Positions 32,008 to 58,542 of a stretch of 64,000 nt of DNA are shown here, one piece after another. How positions within the stretch are numbered: the first letter of the stretch is position 1; the number at the start of each line of letters is the position of its first letter. The stretch lies in IMG/VR virus record IMGVR_UViG_3300031801_001562; one strand, given 5' to 3'. The stretch is from a virus. Taxonomy: Duplodnaviria > Caudoviricetes. The notes under the pieces are model-generated. The model did not search any database, had not been told where the DNA came from, and saw nothing but the letters and a program-made list of their open reading frames with translations. The translations under genes and the position numbers were made by a program.

Positions 32008-34524
32008 TTAAGCAACCATTTCCGCAAATCTTTGAAGCATTATCCTTTTTTCTAATTTTCCTTTCTGAAATTTTTTGAATGCCTTAGTCAAAGAAGCAGT
32101 TGAATTAACTTTATTAGAATCAATATTTATTTCATCCTCCATCATAACGGAGGTATGTTGTTTGATTACATAAAGTTCATCATATCCCTTATCATCTACA
32201 ATCATGTATCCGTTTCGATTGTATCCGGCTTTTACATCTTGCCATTTGCTCCATCCGACCATGCGACCTGCATCATCGGAGGAAGTTGTAAGGAAAAATC
32301 CTAAAACGTTTGAACCCGTCTTATATTTAAAATAATTTATAAAATTTTCTGTTTGGCGAAATCCATGACAGGCGGTCCAATCGAAAACTTTTTTTGTTTC
32401 TTTATCTACCAACCTGATGTGAGAATCTCGAGTATCGATTCGTTCTATAAAAAGTTCATCTCCACTGTCTTCTCTTGTCACGAAAGATTTATGAGATGAA
32501 TTAGATTCTCCGTCTGAAAGAATAATTGTGTTAACAATATCAAGATTATTTTCTCTTTGGAATCTTTTAACATTTGCTGAACTTATCATGATTGCATCAT
32601 TCAAAGGAGTTCCGCAAAGACGATGCAGCGGCCATTTAATATGACGACCTATTGAATTCCATTCCCAAGATGATCGACATTTATTTTCCGCACCCCAACT
32701 GTCATAAATTATAGAAGGGATTGTATCTTTCGGAAGTTTGGTATTTCGACCAGTAAATGCATTTCTATTAATTATTTTCTCTCTTCTTTCTTCTAACCAG
32801 TACGCGCCCATAAAATCTCTATCGCATCGAAGTATAGATAAAAGAAGATTTTCACGTTGATTCTTAAATTCTTTACTGGTCATTTTATTAGAAAATATTT
32901 CCATTAATTGAGTAGATTTATCTCCCATTGCCATATCGCCTAATCGTTCTTTATAAGGGGTCCCAAATTTTTCTTTTTCTTTTCCTTCTTCATCAAAACT
33001 ATAATCAACAAAAGCATATGCCTCATGAGCGATATTACATTTCCTGCAGAAATCTATTAATTGAAATAATTGATTCAAAGTTGGAATCATTTTATCACTC
33101 ATAGATCCTGACCAATCCATTAAAAAATAAAGTCCGTGACTCTTACCTTCAGGAACAATCGTGATTTTCTTAAAAATATTATCACAATATTTGTACTTAT
33201 GAATATCTGAAAGAGATATAGTACCTGTGTTTGCGGTCATCGACCTTTTATATTCAGCTGCTTTCTTTTTCATTTCAAATTCTTTAACAAGATAATTAAC
33301 AACTGGTTTATTTTCCTTGTCGATATATTTCAAATATTCGCGCGCATATCCAAATGCTAATGAATATTCCCTTTCCCACTCACTCTCTCCCTTATTTGCC
33401 CCTATCAAATAATCCCTGCGTTCATCTAGTGCTTCCTGAGTTCTTTTTAAAAGTTCTTTATAACTAATAATTAAATTTTCACTTTTTAAATCAATTGTTG
33501 GTGAATTATAATATTTCAACTCTAGTGCATCTTCATGAACTAGTTCTTCCTCATGTTCACGAAAATTCTGATCGGTTAAGGATTTCGGTTCATGTTTCCA
33601 TTTCCATGGATCATCTTCATACCACTTATCATATCCTCCTACTCTCTCTCCTCCCAGCTTTTTTCCTTCTTCCTCTTTTTCTTCATCTGCTTCAGACTGA
33701 GAAGATTCTTGATCTCCATTATCTTCTTCTTTTTGATCTTCTTCTTGATCTCCATCAGTTCCTTCATTATCGCATTTATCTGCCGGCTTGTCACAATCAT
33801 CTTTTTCTGTTTCCTCTTTAGACTGATCCTGAATATCTGTTTCATTAAAATCATAATCAAAATCATTTTCCTCATCACTATCTTCTTCTTCCTCTTCATC
33901 TTCTTGATAATATTGATCCATAAAAGAATCATCCTGACAAGTTTGCTGTTCTTGTTCGTTTTCTTTAGCATAATCCCAAAGTTCCTCGGTCAGTTGTTCA
34001 ACATCTCCCCAAGTCTCAAGTTCTGCCATCTTATCAACAAATGGTTTCTCTGCTTCGGTGAATTGAACATTCTCTAAAGGTCCACCCTTAAAATGAATAT
34101 TAAGTTTATCAATTAATGAACCAGAATTGATATCAATATTATATTGCTTGAGGCCGAAAAAATCTCTATCATGCACTAAGATTTTATATCCCTTGCTCAT
34201 CGCCTTTCCGGCACCTGCGAACTTTCTTTTGATTAATTTTTCGATCCTGGCATCTTCCACAACGTTCAAAAAGCCCTTATAATTCGGTCCTTTTGTTTCA
34301 ATAACCTTGTGCCAACCATGAGCTGGAGTATTTAAAGCGTGTCCGACTTCATGACAAACAAATAAGTCATAAACCTCACCTTCCATCTCTTTGAGAATCG
34401 GTAAAATTAATGTTCTGCCTTTCGGATCGAATCCGGCGGTTGGAACTTTAGCGTGGCGAACAGTAATATTTTCTGTTGCCATGAGTTTTGCTAAAATGCT
34501 TTTTTGTTCTAATAATTCATCCAT
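32008..34524 (-). CDS. vWA-domain protein with N-terminal HExxH domain (MoxR partner, CobT-like)
   Basis: CHEVGH, NVVEDARIE, long acidic linker, MIDAS LMDWSGSM, GTPL, ILSDGES. Confidence 0.8.
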   Translation of the reverse strand: MDELLEQKSILAKLMATENITVRHAKVPTAGFDPKGRTLILPILKEMEGEVYDLFVCHEVGHALNTPAHGWHKVIETKGPNYKGFLNVVEDARIEKLIKRKFAGAGKAMSKGYKILVHDRDFFGLKQYNIDINSGSLIDKLNIHFKGGPLENVQFTEAEKPFVDKMAELETWGDVEQLTEELWDYAKENEQEQQTCQDDSFMDQYYQEDEEEEEDSDEENDFDYDFNETDIQDQSKEETEKDDCDKPADKCDNEGTDGDQEEDQKEEDNGDQESSQSEADEEKEEEGKKLGGERVGGYDKWYEDDPWKWKHEPKSLTDQNFREHEEELVHEDALELKYYNSPTIDLKSENLIISYKELLKRTQEALDERRDYLIGANKGESEWEREYSLAFGYAREYLKYIDKENKPVVNYLVKEFEMKKKAAEYKRSMTANTGTISLSDIHKYKYCDNIFKKITIVPEGKSHGLYFLMDWSGSMSDKMIPTLNQLFQLIDFCRKCNIAHEAYAFVDYSFDEEGKEKEKFGTPYKERLGDMAMGDKSTQLMEIFSNKMTSKEFKNQRENLLLSILRCDRDFMGAYWLEERREKIINRNAFTGRNTKLPKDTIPSIIYDSWGAENKCRSSWEWNSIGRHIKWPLHRLCGTPLNDAIMISSANVKRFQRENNLDIVNTIILSDGESNSSHKSFVTREDSGDELFIERIDTRDSHIRLVDKETKKVFDWTACHGFRQTENFINYFKYKTGSNVLGFFLTTSSDDAGRMVGWSKWQDVKAGYNRNGYMIVDDKGYDELYVIKQHTSVMMEDEINIDSNKVNSTASLTKAFKKFQKGKLEKRIMLQRFAEMVA

Positions 34525-34826: not shown

Positions 34827-34855
34827 ATTATAACATATCTAGCTCAACATGTCAA
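34827..34855 (-). promoter_or_regulatory. sigma70-type early promoter
   Basis: TTGACA-17 nt-TATAAT; the block is identical to 51667-51695. Confidence 0.85.
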
Positions 34856-34870
34856 CATATTTGATTTCTT

Positions 34871-34911
34871 GTAATATCAACTGGTTACCTGTATCTCATT
34901 AAAATCATTGA
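34871..34911. promoter_or_regulatory. Palindromic operator-like element, copy 2 (between divergent promoters)
   Basis: Arms gtaatatcaactggttac / gtatctcattaaaatcattga. Confidence 0.55.
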
Positions 34912-34922
34912 AAATCTTTTTT

Positions 34923-34930
34923 GATAAATA
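34923..34930 (+). promoter_or_regulatory. Late promoter variant (GATAAATA) for the AsnRS-like/tRNA-like unit
   Basis: One mismatch to TATAAATA; the same variant precedes 22342-22563. Confidence 0.5.
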
Positions 34931-34977
34931 TTAGAATTGGAGAGAATATTTAATGAATTTTTTTGGAAAGGAACAAC

Positions 34978-35811
34978 TTGACCAGTTTAATTATGCCTAC
35001 AGATTTTGATAATGCCGTTACCAGTCTTCGTAAATTTTTTCATTCCCGTGGTTTTCTCGAAGTACACACCCAAAACAGATTATCCATATTAGCCGCTTGC
35101 GAAGATCCCACAACTGTCGCAACATATAATTATAATGACATCATATGGCCTTTGCCTCAAACAGGTCAAATGTGGTTAGAATATGAGCTATTAAATAATC
35201 CAGATTTAAGAGGTGTATTCTGTGTTTCAACATCTTATAGACAAGAGCAGAACCCCGTTGAAGGTAGACATGAAGTTATATTTCCCATGTTTGAATTTGA
35301 AGCACCTGGCGACTTTCAGGACTTGCTTAATATGGAAAGAGATTTAATTAAGCACTTAGGTTTCATAATTCCAGATAACAATTCATTTCCTGAAAAAACC
35401 TACGGTATGTGGTGCGAGGATTTTGATTGTGATGAATTAGATCATGACCACGAACAAATGATATCTGATTCCCATCCATCCGGAGTTGGATTTATAACTC
35501 AATTTCCTTATCATACTTCCCCCTTTTGGAATATGAAAAAAGAAGGTGATCTTGCTAACAAATGCGATGTAATTATGGGGGGCATGGAAACTATTGGTTC
35601 CGCTGAAAGGTCTGCTGATCCGAAAGAGATGGAAGACCAGTTTCATACAATTTCCGATGGAGAATATGCTGAATTATTATTTAAATTATTCGGTAAAGAA
35701 CGAGTAGAAAAAGAATTGAAAGAATTCTTAAGTCATAAATTTTTTCCAAGATATGGTGGTGGAATAGGTCTTACCAGACTTATAAGTGCCCTGAAGATTA
35801 ATAATGCGTGA
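34978..35811 (+). CDS. Class IIb aminoacyl-tRNA synthetase paralog, catalytic domain only (AsnRS/archaeal-type asparagine synthetase-like)
   Basis: Motif 1 FFHSRGFLEVHT, GQMWLE, motif 2 SYRQE...RH...FPMFEFE, ETIGSAERS, motif 3 GGGIGLTRL; no OB-fold anticodon-binding domain; TTG 34978 follows an AAGGA RBS. Confidence 0.85.
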   Translation: MTSLIMPTDFDNAVTSLRKFFHSRGFLEVHTQNRLSILAACEDPTTVATYNYNDIIWPLPQTGQMWLEYELLNNPDLRGVFCVSTSYRQEQNPVEGRHEVIFPMFEFEAPGDFQDLLNMERDLIKHLGFIIPDNNSFPEKTYGMWCEDFDCDELDHDHEQMISDSHPSGVGFITQFPYHTSPFWNMKKEGDLANKCDVIMGGMETIGSAERSADPKEMEDQFHTISDGEYAELLFKLFGKERVEKELKEFLSHKFFPRYGGGIGLTRLISALKINNA

Positions 35812-35814
35812 TAC

Positions 35815-35925
35815 TCTGGGGTGGCGAAATAGGGAAACGCGGCACGTTGTTTGCGTGTTATCTTTGGTTTGATCGATATAATCTAGATCAAAGATGTGTT
35901 GGTTCGAGTCCAACCCCCAGAGCCA
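35815..35925 (+). tRNA. Atypical tRNA-Asn(GUU)-like RNA, 111 nt, with a 39-nt variable arm
   Basis: Acceptor TCTGGGG/CCCCAGA+G+CCA; D arm GCG/CGC with GG; anticodon stem GCACG/CGTGT with loop TTGTTTG; T arm GTTGG-TTCGAGT-CCAAC. Confidence 0.85.
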
Positions 35926-35950
35926 TTAGTAAAGATATATTTATATCATT

Positions 35951-36388
35951 TTAAAACTTAGATATAAATTTCGCTATGGGTTGAATAAGTGGAAGAAGTG
36001 CAATTGCCATAAGAGTATTCACTCCTGTATGAATTATTGCAATCTGTTTAGTTATTCCTGTGGGCATCCCATCAGAAACCATTATTCCAGCCAACCAAAT
36101 AGTTCCAGTAGTTCCTATATTTGCGCCAAGTACAGCTGCGATTGCAGATGGTAAAGGTAAGGCACCAGATGCAACTAATCCTATAATTGCAGTAGTAGAA
36201 AGTGAACTAGATTGCCAGAGAAGGGTACATCCAATTGCTCCGAAAAACATATAATAAGGATTTCCTAAAAACCATTCAAGATGTTCTAAATGACTCATTG
36301 ATTTCATTCCACCCGAGAACATCTTTAAGCCAATGTAAAAAATTACCAAACCTAAAAGGGTCTGAAATACTGGGTTATTAAATTCCAT
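35951..36388 (-). CDS. Na+/Pi-cotransporter family protein (single repeat)
   Basis: LLWQSSSLST (QSSS motif) and LGANIGTT; start placed at MEFNNP. Confidence 0.85.
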   Translation of the reverse strand: MEFNNPVFQTLLGLVIFYIGLKMFSGGMKSMSHLEHLEWFLGNPYYMFFGAIGCTLLWQSSSLSTTAIIGLVASGALPLPSAIAAVLGANIGTTGTIWLAGIMVSDGMPTGITKQIAIIHTGVNTLMAIALLPLIQPIAKFISKF

Positions 36389-36416
36389 AAATCCTCCTTT
36401 TTTATATTTCCACGAA

Positions 36417-36614
36417 TCATAAAGTTTTCTGTCTTTCTTTTTCATACCTTTCCATCCATTCAATATTTTGTTGTGCATTCTTATTCTGCATATCCTTGAT
36501 TATCTTGTCACGTTGATCATCAAAGTACTTTCCAAAAGATGTTTTTTTCTTTTTGAACGTTGCATCTAATTCTTTCATACATTCTTCGTAAATAAAATTA
36601 TCTTTTACTCCCAT
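36417..36614 (-). CDS. Hypothetical protein
   Basis: 65-aa coupled ORF. Confidence 0.45.
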   Translation of the reverse strand: MGVKDNFIYEECMKELDATFKKKKTSFGKYFDDQRDKIIKDMQNKNAQQNIEWMERYEKERQKTL

Positions 36615-54817: not shown

Positions 54818-56146
54818 ATTAAGTATTTCTACTAACAAAGGATCTAAGTAATCTTTATAACTTTGATCCCTTACTTCATCTAAAATAATTATTTCCGTTT
54901 TCATTTTTTTAACATCACTGGTATTATTTTTTAATGCATTTTGTAATTGACCAACTAAATTATGAATATTAAATCTATACCACTTCTTATATTCTTTCCC
55001 TCTTATAGTTGCGTGTACAGTATCAGATTGTGCAACGGTAGCTATTCCGGATTCAGTAATATCTATAATCCGATCAAGAGCAATCTCTAATAATTCCTTT
55101 GGCATATTCCTAATTGATGTTCCTCTATTATCTGGATACATTTCTGAAAAATGAATATACCAATCAGGAATTTTATAGTATGCACATTTATTACATATCC
55201 ATTCTATATAATCAGCAACATTTAAAATATTTAAAGATGACAATACCATATTAAAATATTGATGTTTAATATTAGTACATGTACTAAGATAATGATCTAA
55301 GCTTTCATTTAATTTTTTCCAATCAGAATTATGCCGGATATAATTATATGTTCCATGGGTGCCGTCTATGCTGAACGTATGTCCTTGCTCTTTGAAATTA
55401 TTTAAAATTTTTGATAATTCAGGAGTGAACTGTGTAGCATTAGTATGAAACTTTAAAATTGTATTTTTACTTGCTTCCGTTTCGACATATCGTTCTAATA
55501 CTTTAACTACTCTTCTATCATAAAATGGTTCTCCTCCAGAAGCTTTTAACATTGTTATCTTGTGTGTATTATTCAATAGCCAATCAATAACACTGTTATT
55601 ATCTTTATCATAGATAACACCTTTTATATCAGGCATTGCATTATTACTGACTCTCATGAAGGAATTATGTAAGCCCTTTGCCTTCATCTTCTCAACGTCT
55701 TTACCTAATTGATGAGATGAACCCACATTACACATTCTACAAGCTAAATTGCACAGGTTAGAAAGGGTTATATCAAACTCAAACAAACCTTCCTGATTGG
55801 GATGCGGGGGATCAGAAGAATCAGAACATTGTCTAAATGATTCTAAGCCATCTTCCTCCATCCTCCAACAAACGGTACATGCTTCATTCTTTATACCATT
55901 AGATAAATCATTTCTGAGTTTTTTAAAAGATTCATGATTAAATATTTCTTCTGGACTTAAACCTTTTAAAGAGCCATGGCCTAGGCTATGATGTTTAACG
56001 GAACCATCTTCTTCTGAAGTAACAGGGTTCATCATCATACAACAAGGAGTTACATTAATAGGATCTCTTCCATTTTTAGACCATTTCTTAAAAGTCATGG
56101 CATGAAATGGATAATGACAATATGTTGGATGTGTTTTAGGATTCAT
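54797..56146 (-). CDS. Radical SAM protein with SPASM/twitch-like Cys segments
   Basis: CNLACRMC (CxxxCxxC), SGGEPF, N-terminal YC...PCC...CxxCW. Confidence 0.88.
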   Translation of the reverse strand: MNPKTHPTYCHYPFHAMTFKKWSKNGRDPINVTPCCMMMNPVTSEEDGSVKHHSLGHGSLKGLSPEEIFNHESFKKLRNDLSNGIKNEACTVCWRMEEDGLESFRQCSDSSDPPHPNQEGLFEFDITLSNLCNLACRMCNVGSSHQLGKDVEKMKAKGLHNSFMRVSNNAMPDIKGVIYDKDNNSVIDWLLNNTHKITMLKASGGEPFYDRRVVKVLERYVETEASKNTILKFHTNATQFTPELSKILNNFKEQGHTFSIDGTHGTYNYIRHNSDWKKLNESLDHYLSTCTNIKHQYFNMVLSSLNILNVADYIEWICNKCAYYKIPDWYIHFSEMYPDNRGTSIRNMPKELLEIALDRIIDITESGIATVAQSDTVHATIRGKEYKKWYRFNIHNLVGQLQNALKNNTSDVKKMKTEIIILDEVRDQSYKDYLDPLLVEILNGEAVHW

Positions 56147-57078
56147 TCAAATAAAATAGAAATTGATTCATTATGATTAATTCTTCTAATCGCTTCTGAA
56201 AACATAGGTGCTATTGTTAATACTTTTACACTATTAGTTTCAAGATTTGGTATAGTATCTGTTATTACCAAATTAGATAAAGCTTCAGACTCTTGCATTT
56301 TACGTCCACCATTCTTACTCAACACTCCGTGAGTAATATAAGCCATAACTTCAATAGCCCCTTCTCTCTTTAATGCCTCGGCAGCTTTAATAAGTGTATT
56401 ACCTGTATCTACAATATCATCTACTATTATACATTTTTTCTTATTCACATCTCCAATAACATTCATCGAAGCAACTTGATTAGCTTGCTCTCTACGTTTA
56501 TCGATGATCGCTATATCTAATTGTAATTTCTTAGCCACCTTTCTTGCTCTGGCAACGCCACCCGCATCAGGAGAAACTATAACACCATTCTTTGCTATTA
56601 TCATTCGCTTTGGATGAGTTTCTAAATCATTAACAAACAATGGCATAGCCCCTAGATCATCTACTGGAATATCAAAGAACCCTTGTATCTGTCCGGCATG
56701 TAAATCCATTGTTACTATTCTATTAGCTCCTGCCATCTCTAACATGCTTGCTACTAACCTAGCCGTTATAGGTGTTCTTGAAACAGGCTTTCTATCTTGT
56801 CTTGCATAACCGAAATAAGGAATCACTGCAGTAATTCTACCAGCCGATGCTCTCTTACAAGCATCTATTATAATTAACAATTCCATTAAATAATCATTAG
56901 CAGGATTACAAGTACTTTGAATAATGAATACATCCTCACCACGAACATTCTCTTTAATCATACACGAGAGTTCATTATCTGCAAATTTAATAAGTTCTAC
57001 TTCACACAAGTGCTGTCCACAATGATGTGCAATAGACTCGGCCAAATTTTTATTTGAATTTCCAGCAATTAATTTCAT
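56143..57078 (-). CDS. prs: Ribose-phosphate pyrophosphokinase
   Basis: FADNE, PYFGYARQDRK, DLHAGQIQGFF, VSPDAGG, IVDDIVDTGNT. Confidence 0.96.
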   Translation of the reverse strand: MKLIAGNSNKNLAESIAHHCGQHLCEVELIKFADNELSCMIKENVRGEDVFIIQSTCNPANDYLMELLIIIDACKRASAGRITAVIPYFGYARQDRKPVSRTPITARLVASMLEMAGANRIVTMDLHAGQIQGFFDIPVDDLGAMPLFVNDLETHPKRMIIAKNGVIVSPDAGGVARARKVAKKLQLDIAIIDKRREQANQVASMNVIGDVNKKKCIIVDDIVDTGNTLIKAAEALKREGAIEVMAYITHGVLSKNGGRKMQESEALSNLVITDTIPNLETNSVKVLTIAPMFSEAIRRINHNESISILFE

Positions 57079-58467: not shown

Positions 58468-58542
58468 TGGCTGCCTAGGCTGGGCTCGAACCAGCGACAT
58501 TCTGATTAACAGTCAGATGTTCTACCACTGAACTACTAGGCA
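58468..58542 (-). tRNA. tRNA-Asn(GTT), canonical
   Basis: Acceptor TGCCTAG/CTAGGCA+G+CCA, anticodon arm TCTGA-CTGTTAA-TCAGA, short variable loop. Confidence 0.95.

Follow-up and report, generated by a model that had tools for sequence, protein, structure and literature searches.

An asparaginyl-tRNA synthetase-like ligase and an unusual tRNA with a GUU anticodon form a two-gene cassette in marine T4-like phages

A ligase–tRNA cassette in phage genomes

The stretch of DNA analysed here, termed the window, comprises 64,000 nt of the IMG/VR virus record IMGVR_UViG_3300031801_001562 and belongs to a marine T4-like myovirus whose DNA polymerase is 49.6% identical to those of cyanomyoviruses. At positions 35815–35922 of its plus strand, with an encoded CCA extending through 35925, a tRNA with the anticodon GUU can be read from the sequence. 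This tRNA starts 3 nt past the stop codon of a ligase gene that resembles the catalytic core of asparaginyl-tRNA synthetase (AsnRS), and the ligase is the only plus-strand gene in that part of the window. The presence of the AsnRS-like gene 3 nt upstream is the decisive context for the tRNA. Together the two constitute a self-contained two-gene cassette in marine T4-like phages. On the basis of sequence comparisons, we consider it probable that the RNA is a functional member of the tRNA family partnered with the AsnRS-like core encoded upstream, such that the two would act as a private ligase:tRNA pair.

The linkage between the two genes is evident in both directions. IMG/VR contains at least 597 relatives of the ligase, and 80 of these loci were fetched, of which 78 were informative. 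A tRNA lies downstream of the ligase in 72 of the informative loci and no tRNA is nearby in six; the two remaining loci are cut too early. Conversely, when a DNA pattern for the tRNA alone was used, the ligase was located directly upstream in 25 of 26 contigs, and the 26th contig ends 3 nt before the match. Ligase and tRNA are separated by 3–18 nt in 41 of 75 loci; in four others the two overlap (by 18 nt in three cases and by 5 nt in one). No conserved third gene was found, with no other neighbour common to more than 17 of 83 loci.

The same arrangement occurs in the Prochlorococcus phages P-SSM2, P-SSM5 and P-SSM7, where the ligase is followed within ~10 nt by a tRNA-Asn(GUU) of 85–88 nt. 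The genes have been known for years by annotation in these phages. GenBank annotates both the ligase and the tRNA, and a table lists 'tRNA ligase, T4-GC 194' for P-SSM2 and P-SSM7 (Sullivan et al., 2010; PMC3037559). A literature search returned only this table entry, and no functional study of the ligase–tRNA pair or of the architecture of the tRNA was found.

Some loci depart from the compact arrangement. In L014, L037 and L048 the start of the tRNA is inside the ligase ORF (open reading frame), 18 nt short of its end, and release of the tRNA by RNase P would therefore remove the end of the mRNA, including the stop codon. Gaps of 110–226 nt encode one or two conserved mini-proteins, which are lacking in the window with its 3-nt gap. 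These proteins are of two types, one with the motif IPIYKNG...ELQRQ and the other a C2H2-like type with CFECD...HQEEH, and are found in loci L010, L011, L015, L016, L022, L023, L027, L030, L032, L039 and L067, as well as at L008:2370–2574. The mini-proteins may be a third, optional component of the arrangement.

Representatives of the ligase that lack the family tRNA are found in two huge phages and at 414 loci in cellular genome assemblies. The cellular homologues (55–63% identity) are mostly from Patescibacteria, Rickettsiales and other host-dependent lineages, and carry the label 'amino acid--tRNA ligase-related protein' from the Prokaryotic Genome Annotation Pipeline. No family tRNA was found beside the ligase in cellular or huge-phage genomes. 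Five contigs in metagenome-assembled genomes that do contain it (L086, L100, L119, L124 and L140) look like mis-binned marine phage DNA. All five ligase-bearing cellular genomes that were checked encode AspRS and GatB and lack AsnRS. The ligase is sporadic: of 151 genomes sampled from that cellular phylum, two carry it. The mini-ligase is therefore not a general substitute for AsnRS.

Two further observations concern the surroundings of the cellular homologues. A tRNA-Gln lies within ~2 kb of the mini-ligase homologue at L089, L115, L118, L120, L122, L133, L146 and L149; this proximity, seen in metagenome-assembled genomes labelled as Patescibacteria or related candidate phyla, may represent shared synteny rather than a functional link. 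In Candidatus Bandiella (L141:1251–3012), the homologue is followed by genes for OMP decarboxylase, a phosphoribosyltransferase and dihydroorotate dehydrogenase, which belong to pyrimidine synthesis.

Architecture and conservation of the tRNA

The tRNA of the window (plus-strand coordinates throughout) can be drawn as a complete cloverleaf. The 5′ strand of the acceptor stem, U1–G7 (35815–35821), pairs with 35915–35921 to give 7 bp that include U1:A72, and is followed by U8 and G9. The D arm (35824–35840) resembles that of tRNA-Leu: its stem has 3 bp (GCG/CGC), and its loop of 11 nt, AAATAGGGAAA, carries A14, G18, G19 and A21. The anticodon arm (35842–35858) has a 5-bp stem (35842–35846/35854–35858) and the loop UUGUUUG, in which U33 precedes the anticodon at 35849–35851, and U37 (35852) and G38 (35853) follow it. 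The variable region (35859–35897) spans 39 nt, and a hairpin of 14–15 bp with one bulge and the loop CGAUAUA occupies 35860–35895. The T arm (35898–35914; GTTGG, TTCGAGT, CCAAC) is canonical. The 3′ end (35915–35925) consists of the acceptor 3′ strand (35915–35921), the discriminator G73 (35922) and CCA (35923–35925). The minimum-free-energy fold is the same cloverleaf, with −38.3 kcal/mol and z = −3.67, and none of 200 shuffled sequences folds as well. A preliminary description of this DNA, made from the letters alone, had noted the 3-bp D stem with a large loop, the variable region folding as a long hairpin with the loop CGATATA, the loop UUGUUUG with U37 and G38, and a fully canonical T arm. 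All of these are seen in the sequence as described, and the calculated fold gives 14–15 bp for the hairpin.

Marine T4-like phages contain a family of such tRNAs, with no fewer than 61 distinct sequences, to which the window tRNA belongs. Covariation was assessed in a MAFFT alignment of 21 diverse members, in which 98.8% of cells are in standard pairs and 21 of 25 pairs exhibit compensatory changes on both sides. The covariation score was 0.79, compared with 0.24 in shuffles; none of 500 shuffles reached the observed value, and slid controls paired at 41–52%. Covarying pairs make up 6 of 7 in the acceptor stem, 2 of 3 in the D stem, 5 of 5 in the anticodon stem and 4 of 5 in the T stem, the core of the variable arm covaries as well, and changes that break stems are not over-represented in the family helices. 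That every one of the five helices covaries rules out a pseudo-tRNA, the outcome that the preliminary description had proposed to look for through missing covariation and accumulated stem-breaking mutations, and demonstrates that the RNA is folded, as had been suggested there, and selected. A covariance model built from the 21-member alignment scores 76 members at 53–99 bits, the window tRNA among them at 82.6 bits, and ordinary tRNAs at ~42 bits or less, including a canonical tRNA-Asn in the window (42.3 bits).

Sequence conservation within the family is concentrated at positions relevant to tRNA identity and folding. U1, U8, G18, G19, G34 and U35 are invariant across the 61 distinct sequences, as are T54, C56 and A58. 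Each of the 59 sequences long enough to include positions 72 and 73 has A72 and G73, the U1:A72 pair is found throughout the family, and pair 2:71 is either C:G or G:C. The anticodon is GUU in 60 of 61 sequences. The sole exception, L056 (2380–2475), has a body otherwise typical of the family but the loop CUGUCGA, with the Asp anticodon GUC and G37. Of 66 distinct members, 47 encode CCA. The bacterial asparagine identity set is made up of the anticodon G34-U35-U36 and G73 (PMC9976931). This set is complete in the window.

To which ordinary tRNA the body is related can be judged from matches to the family model. When the model, termed R1, was applied to five cellular genomes, the top ten matches, all of which were fetched and typed, were tRNA-Leu (55–69 bits), and the best matches in one huge phage were likewise tRNA-Leu. 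The tRNA is therefore a chimera that has a tRNA-Leu-like body and tRNA-Asn-like ends and anticodon. The proposal in the preliminary description of Asn identity elements on a type-II scaffold thus extends from the window to the family, in which GUU, G73 and U1:A72 recur and whose nearest cellular tRNAs are tRNA-Leu. The window tRNA has both a variable stem-loop of more than ~10 nt and a 3-bp D stem, as class II (long-arm) tRNAs do, and this combination is not universal in the family.

Comparisons with known tRNA classes further define this chimera. A canonical tRNA-Asn(GUU) of 75 nt, detected by ARAGORN and by Rfam (73.2 bits), is encoded outside the cassette at 58468–58542 on the minus strand, and has a 4-bp D stem and the loop CUGUUAA with A37. 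The unusual tRNA shares with canonical tRNA-Asn the GUU anticodon, G73, U1:A72, the 7-bp acceptor stem, the 5-bp T stem and the canonical T loop, but differs in its Leu-like body, 3-bp D stem, 11-nt D loop and G9, in a variable region of 39 rather than 4–5 nt, and in U37 instead of A37. It resembles bacterial tRNA-Leu in the D arm and in the geometry of the variable arm's base, but carries U1:A72 in place of G1:C72, G73 in place of the essential A73, an Asn anticodon, and an arm approximately twice the usual length; the discriminator A73 is a major identity element of bacterial tRNA-Leu (PMC9976931). Bacterial tRNA-Ser has conserved G1-C72 and G2-C71 (PMC9976931), whereas U1:A72 is invariant in the unusual family. 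A long variable arm and non-standard architecture are also characteristic of allo-tRNA and tRNA-Sec. Nevertheless, the RNA is neither of these, because its acceptor/T-stem arrangement is the ordinary 7/5 and not 8/4, 9/3 (described in the abstract of PMC7590224) or 8/5, and its anticodon is GUU rather than the UCA of tRNA-Sec.

The variable region is the least uniform part of the molecule. Among 66 distinct sequences it is between 5 and 39 nt long, and the window, together with one relative, has the maximum of 39 nt. Six of the 66 distinct members have regions of 33–39 nt, and 11 distinct members have 5–7 nt. On a maximum-likelihood tree of the ligase, arm length flips between sisters: L010 has 7 nt and L011 20 nt, L015 has 22 nt and L032 7 nt, and L027 has 7 nt and L030 20 nt. 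Given the 11 members with 5–7 nt and these flips, the arm cannot be a common identity element for the ligase. As close relatives of the ligase appear to work with 5–7-nt loops, the long arm would be dispensable to the enzyme, and is best interpreted as the product of repeated expansion that is tolerated. Three unrelated arms of at least 33 nt (the window type, L100 and L140) all form hairpins from the same anchor. A search of the window for the hairpin core, allowing up to three mismatches, gave no second copy, and in IMG/VR the core was found only in the tRNA of one close relative; a mobile or repeated hairpin was rejected on these grounds.

The preliminary description had also suggested that the insert might prove to be an intron. 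An intron in the variable region is unlikely in view of its position, its 36-nt size, which is far below that of group I introns, and the 5–39-nt spread of lengths. Contigs from four metatranscriptome runs were also consulted; such contigs reveal neither ends, strand nor level, DNA is possibly present in the libraries, and uncovered stretches are uninformative. One contig, from a relative of 90–95% identity, corresponds to 35555–35898 and crosses the ligase–tRNA junction, and another, identical to the window, covers 35860–36087 and crosses the tRNA 3′ end. The contigs retain the arm and no joints are seen, which is weak evidence against splicing, as they cannot show mature ends.

The anticodon loop deviates from that of elongator tRNAs in most of the family. 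Among the 61 distinct sequences, position 33 is U in 47, C in eight and A in six, so that U33 is lost in 14, and position 37 is U in 50, G in nine and A in two, such that only 11 have a purine there. By comparison, all 24 ordinary tRNAs at the same loci carry U33, and all 24 have a purine at position 37. The canonical elongator loop combines U33 with a purine at 37, and the window tRNA has U33 together with U37. G37 is restricted to members with 5–7-nt variable loops. Positions 32, 33, 37 and 38 vary freely, and positions 34–36 are fixed. The odd loop noted in the preliminary description is thus a family-wide trait.

In tRNAs that read ANN codons, position 37 usually carries N6-threonylcarbamoyladenosine (t6A), which needs A37. 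This modification is impossible in most members because position 37 is mostly not A. The preliminary description had suggested that the tRNA is not tuned for ribosomal decoding. This reading is reasonable but is not established, since GUU is retained in 60 of 61 sequences and a fixed GUU beside freely varying neighbours indicates that the anticodon bases are still read by something. The reader would be the ribosome or a host protein, as the partner enzyme has no anticodon-binding domain. A conserved ANN-codon tRNA without A37, and in a quarter of its members without U33, provides a test of the need for both positions.

Standard tools handle these genes poorly. The tRNA of the window was missed by ARAGORN and by a whole-window Rfam scan with default filters. 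In a permissive local scan, the Rfam tRNA model RF00005 matched it over model positions 1–71 with 41.5 bits (E = 1.2e-07), compared with a gathering score of 29. When introns are allowed, ARAGORN mis-calls long-arm relatives as intron-bearing tRNA-Asn, Lys, Val, His, Gln or Ile (L006, L007, L009, L012, L013, L038, L040, L041, L046, L057 and L062). Routine annotation would therefore miss or mislabel the gene. Public annotations of phages with long-arm members are likely to be wrong or absent, and the general lesson for annotation is that tRNA finders overlook or misname such members.

The partner ligase

The ligase ORF (34978–35811, plus strand; stop codon TGA at 35809–35811) encodes an AsnRS-like class IIb catalytic core and no anticodon-binding domain. 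The frame is open from a TTG at 34963; because homologues begin MT(S/T)LI, the TTG at 34978 is the more probable start, giving a protein of 277 amino acids with the N-terminus MTSLIMP. A candidate sigma-70-like promoter upstream of the ligase (34908–34937, plus strand; TTGAAA, 18 nt, TAGAAT) matches the consensus at 10 of 12 positions in a consensus scan, from which promoter activity can be suggested only weakly, and contains GATAAATA at 34923–34930.

The relationship to AsnRS is supported by several comparisons. Pfam PF00152 (tRNA-synt_2) matches residues 18–277 with an E-value of 2.3e-18. None of the NCBIfam models reaches its cut-off: asnS scores 31.7 bits against 414, and the AsnA models 27.1 and 17.9 bits against 389 and 322. 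The LysRS-derived EF-P lysine ligase EpmA was rejected as a candidate, since its models, with cut-offs of 264 and 287, give 23.2 and 18 bits. When a profile of the ligase family was compared with PDB sequences, ranks 1–6 were all AsnRS (6.7e-10), followed by AspRS, LysRS and archaeal AsnA, and the match to archaeal AsnA (3p8t, 8.5e-05) is five orders of magnitude weaker than that to AsnRS. The family is highly conserved; motifs 1–3 are present, and the motif-2 and motif-3 arginines R93 and R272 are invariant. An AlphaFold2 model of the ligase has a pLDDT (predicted local distance difference test) of 95.2, and its top Foldseek match is AsnRS 1x54 (8.9e-19), with AspRS close behind. The segment QTGQMWLE resembles QSSQLYLE of AsnRS, the lysine context of AspRS is absent, and E111 stands where AspRS in the same alignment carries Asp. 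These signatures suggest, with moderate confidence, that the pocket favours asparagine over aspartate.

Complex modelling of the ligase predicts a homodimer formed through the motif-1/motif-2 region, with a score of 0.79, compared with 0.00 for the best of three controls. This mark is reached by 21 of 30 proteins whose solved structures are pairs of one chain and by none of 23 solved as single chains. Agreement between runs is at least 66% of contacts, and the partner pLDDT is at least 86. The modelling thus supports a homodimer, although resemblance to class II dimers of solved structure may account for the result. The ligase shares with AsnRS (PDB 1X54, 8H53, 2XGT and 9SH8) the catalytic fold, motifs 1–3, the QxxQ-LE and Glu signatures and the predicted class II homodimer, but it lacks the N-terminal OB-fold (oligonucleotide/oligosaccharide-binding fold), is 277–282 rather than ~430–460 amino acids long, and has GGGIG as motif 3. 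In being a stand-alone class IIb core of ~290 amino acids with no anticodon-binding domain, it is similar to archaeal AsnA (AS-AR, 'AsnRS2'; PDB 3P8T/1NNH). Archaeal asparagine synthetase A is not known to charge tRNA or to have a dedicated tRNA. The signature residues of the phage ligase do not look to be of the aspartate-binding kind.

Possible roles and genomic surroundings

A plausible sequence of events for the proposed private pair can be outlined. Ligase and tRNA would be made as one transcript, from which an RNase P cut at 35814/35815 would free the tRNA. The dimeric ligase may then recognize the tRNA by its acceptor end (U1:A72 and G73, facing the motif-2 loop) and its unusual core, because the enzyme has no OB-fold with which to read the anticodon, and would charge it, most likely with asparagine. 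With the charged tRNA, the phage could have a supply of its own for Asn codons that needs neither host AsnRS nor the GatCAB route. Alternatively, it might donate its aminoacyl group elsewhere. Because a canonical tRNA-Asn with A37 coexists, the odd tRNA is not simply the Asn decoder of the phage.

Dedicated pairs of a synthetase paralogue and an odd tRNA have precedents in ProRSx/tRNA-ProA of Streptomyces and in PylRS/tRNA-Pyl. As in these systems, the genes are co-located and the tRNA would have its own enzyme that does not rely on normal anticodon read-out. Unlike these systems, the enzyme is a bare catalytic core and the setting is viral, and since the anticodon matches the apparent amino acid, Asn, no recoding is implied.

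Several points weigh against a private pair. The RNA-library contigs show only that the region, arm included, is present. The ligase carries no known tRNA-binding appendage, and its closest structural relatives without an anticodon-binding domain, the archaeal asparagine synthetase A enzymes (3P8T), are not known to charge tRNA. An anticodon-blind enzyme does not explain the strict conservation of GUU. The ligase occurs with no adjacent family tRNA in six phage loci, two huge phages and hundreds of cellular homologues. Finally, the assignment to asparagine derives from two signature positions and a ranking rather than from a pocket analysis.

Four other explanations were weighed against the private pair. 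The ligase could instead be a synthetase of free asparagine of the AsnA (AS-AR) type, co-expressed for Asn supply with an extra Asn decoder that host AsnRS charges. In favour of this, the tRNA has the complete bacterial identity set for asparagine, anticodon plus G73 (PMC9976931), and class IIb cores that lack an anticodon-binding domain and have a known function do include archaeal AsnA, which the profile matches at 8.5e-05. Nonetheless, we regard this explanation as quite unlikely, since AsnRS is ahead of AsnA by five orders of magnitude in E-value, the signatures are those of AsnRS and not of AspRS, whereas an asparagine synthetase must bind aspartate, and the phage already has a normal tRNA-Asn. 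Moreover, a missing A37 and an often missing U33 are unexpected for a tRNA kept only to boost decoding, and two-way linkage at 3–18 nt across varying genome contexts is tighter than co-expression requires. The loop and the coexisting canonical tRNA-Asn speak for a second explanation, in which the RNA is an extra-ribosomal aminoacyl donor, or a backup Asn decoder that evades host anticodon nucleases through its altered loop and has a dedicated ligase, being a poor substrate for host enzymes. Escape from anticodon nucleases through loop changes has been described for phage tRNAs, and freedom at positions 32, 33, 37 and 38 beside a fixed 34–36 is seen here against U33 and a purine at 37 in all 24 ordinary tRNAs of the same loci. 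Yet the cassette is flanked by neither a conserved transferase nor any other conserved third gene, and we know of no nuclease targeting tRNA-Asn in these hosts, which leaves this explanation unlikely.

A host enzyme might also charge the tRNA with another amino acid, either SerRS through the long arm and G73 or a non-discriminating AspRS through G34-U35, with the ligase converting or exploiting the product in a recoding or tRNA-dependent conversion. A Leu-type body can acquire Ser identity when A73 is replaced by G73 (PMC9976931), and the body of the phage tRNA is of this kind; in addition, AspRS would read the GUC of L056 and GUU alike. We consider such a route very unlikely, given that U1:A72 is found family-wide where bacterial tRNA-Ser has G1-C72 and G2-C71 (PMC9976931), that the 11 distinct members with 5–7-nt loops preclude the long arm as a common identity element, and that the ligase holds the full set of motifs for forming an aminoacyl-adenylate. 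A decaying or intron-bearing gene, in which the 36-nt hairpin inactivates the tRNA or is spliced out, is the least credible of the alternatives and would be very surprising. ARAGORN models relatives only with an 'intron', variable regions of 33–39 nt are rare (6 of 66 distinct members), and to our knowledge no variable region this long exists in other tRNAs. Against this, all five helices covary with no surplus of stem-breaking changes, the same anchor is used across 5–39 nt and by the three unrelated hairpin arms of at least 33 nt, and the hairpin is neither a repeated nor a mobile sequence. The insert also lies in the variable region and not in the anticodon loop, is far too short for a group I intron, and is retained without a joint in the RNA-library contigs.

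A more elaborate form of the private-pair reading, which we put forward as doubtful, would join these elements. The pair would be natural, anticodon-blind and mutually private, with a bare AsnRS dimer reading the chimeric tRNA only by its acceptor end and core. The altered loop would hide the tRNA from host enzymes that attack or need normal tRNA-Asn, so that the phage could continue to read Asn codons even with the host pool knocked out or starved, and the arm, which accommodates inserts as long as 39 nt, would offer an unoccupied site for docking.

Should the ligase prove to charge the tRNA, no smaller natural class IIb synthetase acting on tRNA would be known, and the enzyme would do so with no anticodon-binding domain. 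The two genes would also represent a ready-made orthogonal pair, in which the 5–39-nt range of the arm marks where RNA tags fit. Moreover, abundant ocean phages (at least 597 IMG/VR loci) would bring their own aminoacylation step and not only tRNAs.

The remaining observations concern the surroundings of the cassette. The motif TATAAATA occurs on the minus strand at 35938–35945, 13 nt past the CCA of the tRNA and pointing into the tRNA and ligase. This late-promoter motif is no commoner in the window than expected by chance (7 found, 11.4 expected), and therefore we make no claim on the timing of expression. A perfect sigma-70 match on the minus strand (34827–34855; TTGACA, 17 nt, TATAAT, with TG) diverges from the promoter region of the ligase and faces an 838-amino-acid gene at 32008–34524 on the minus strand. 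On the other side of the cassette, a 175-amino-acid ORF (35951–36478, minus strand) matches just one Na+/Pi-cotransporter repeat domain, over positions 1–105 of the 137-position Pfam model PF02690, and is short for such a transporter. A PRPP synthetase is encoded at 56143–57078 on the minus strand; its closest cellular relatives are mostly Alphaproteobacteria (52–58% identity), with no cyanobacterium returned.

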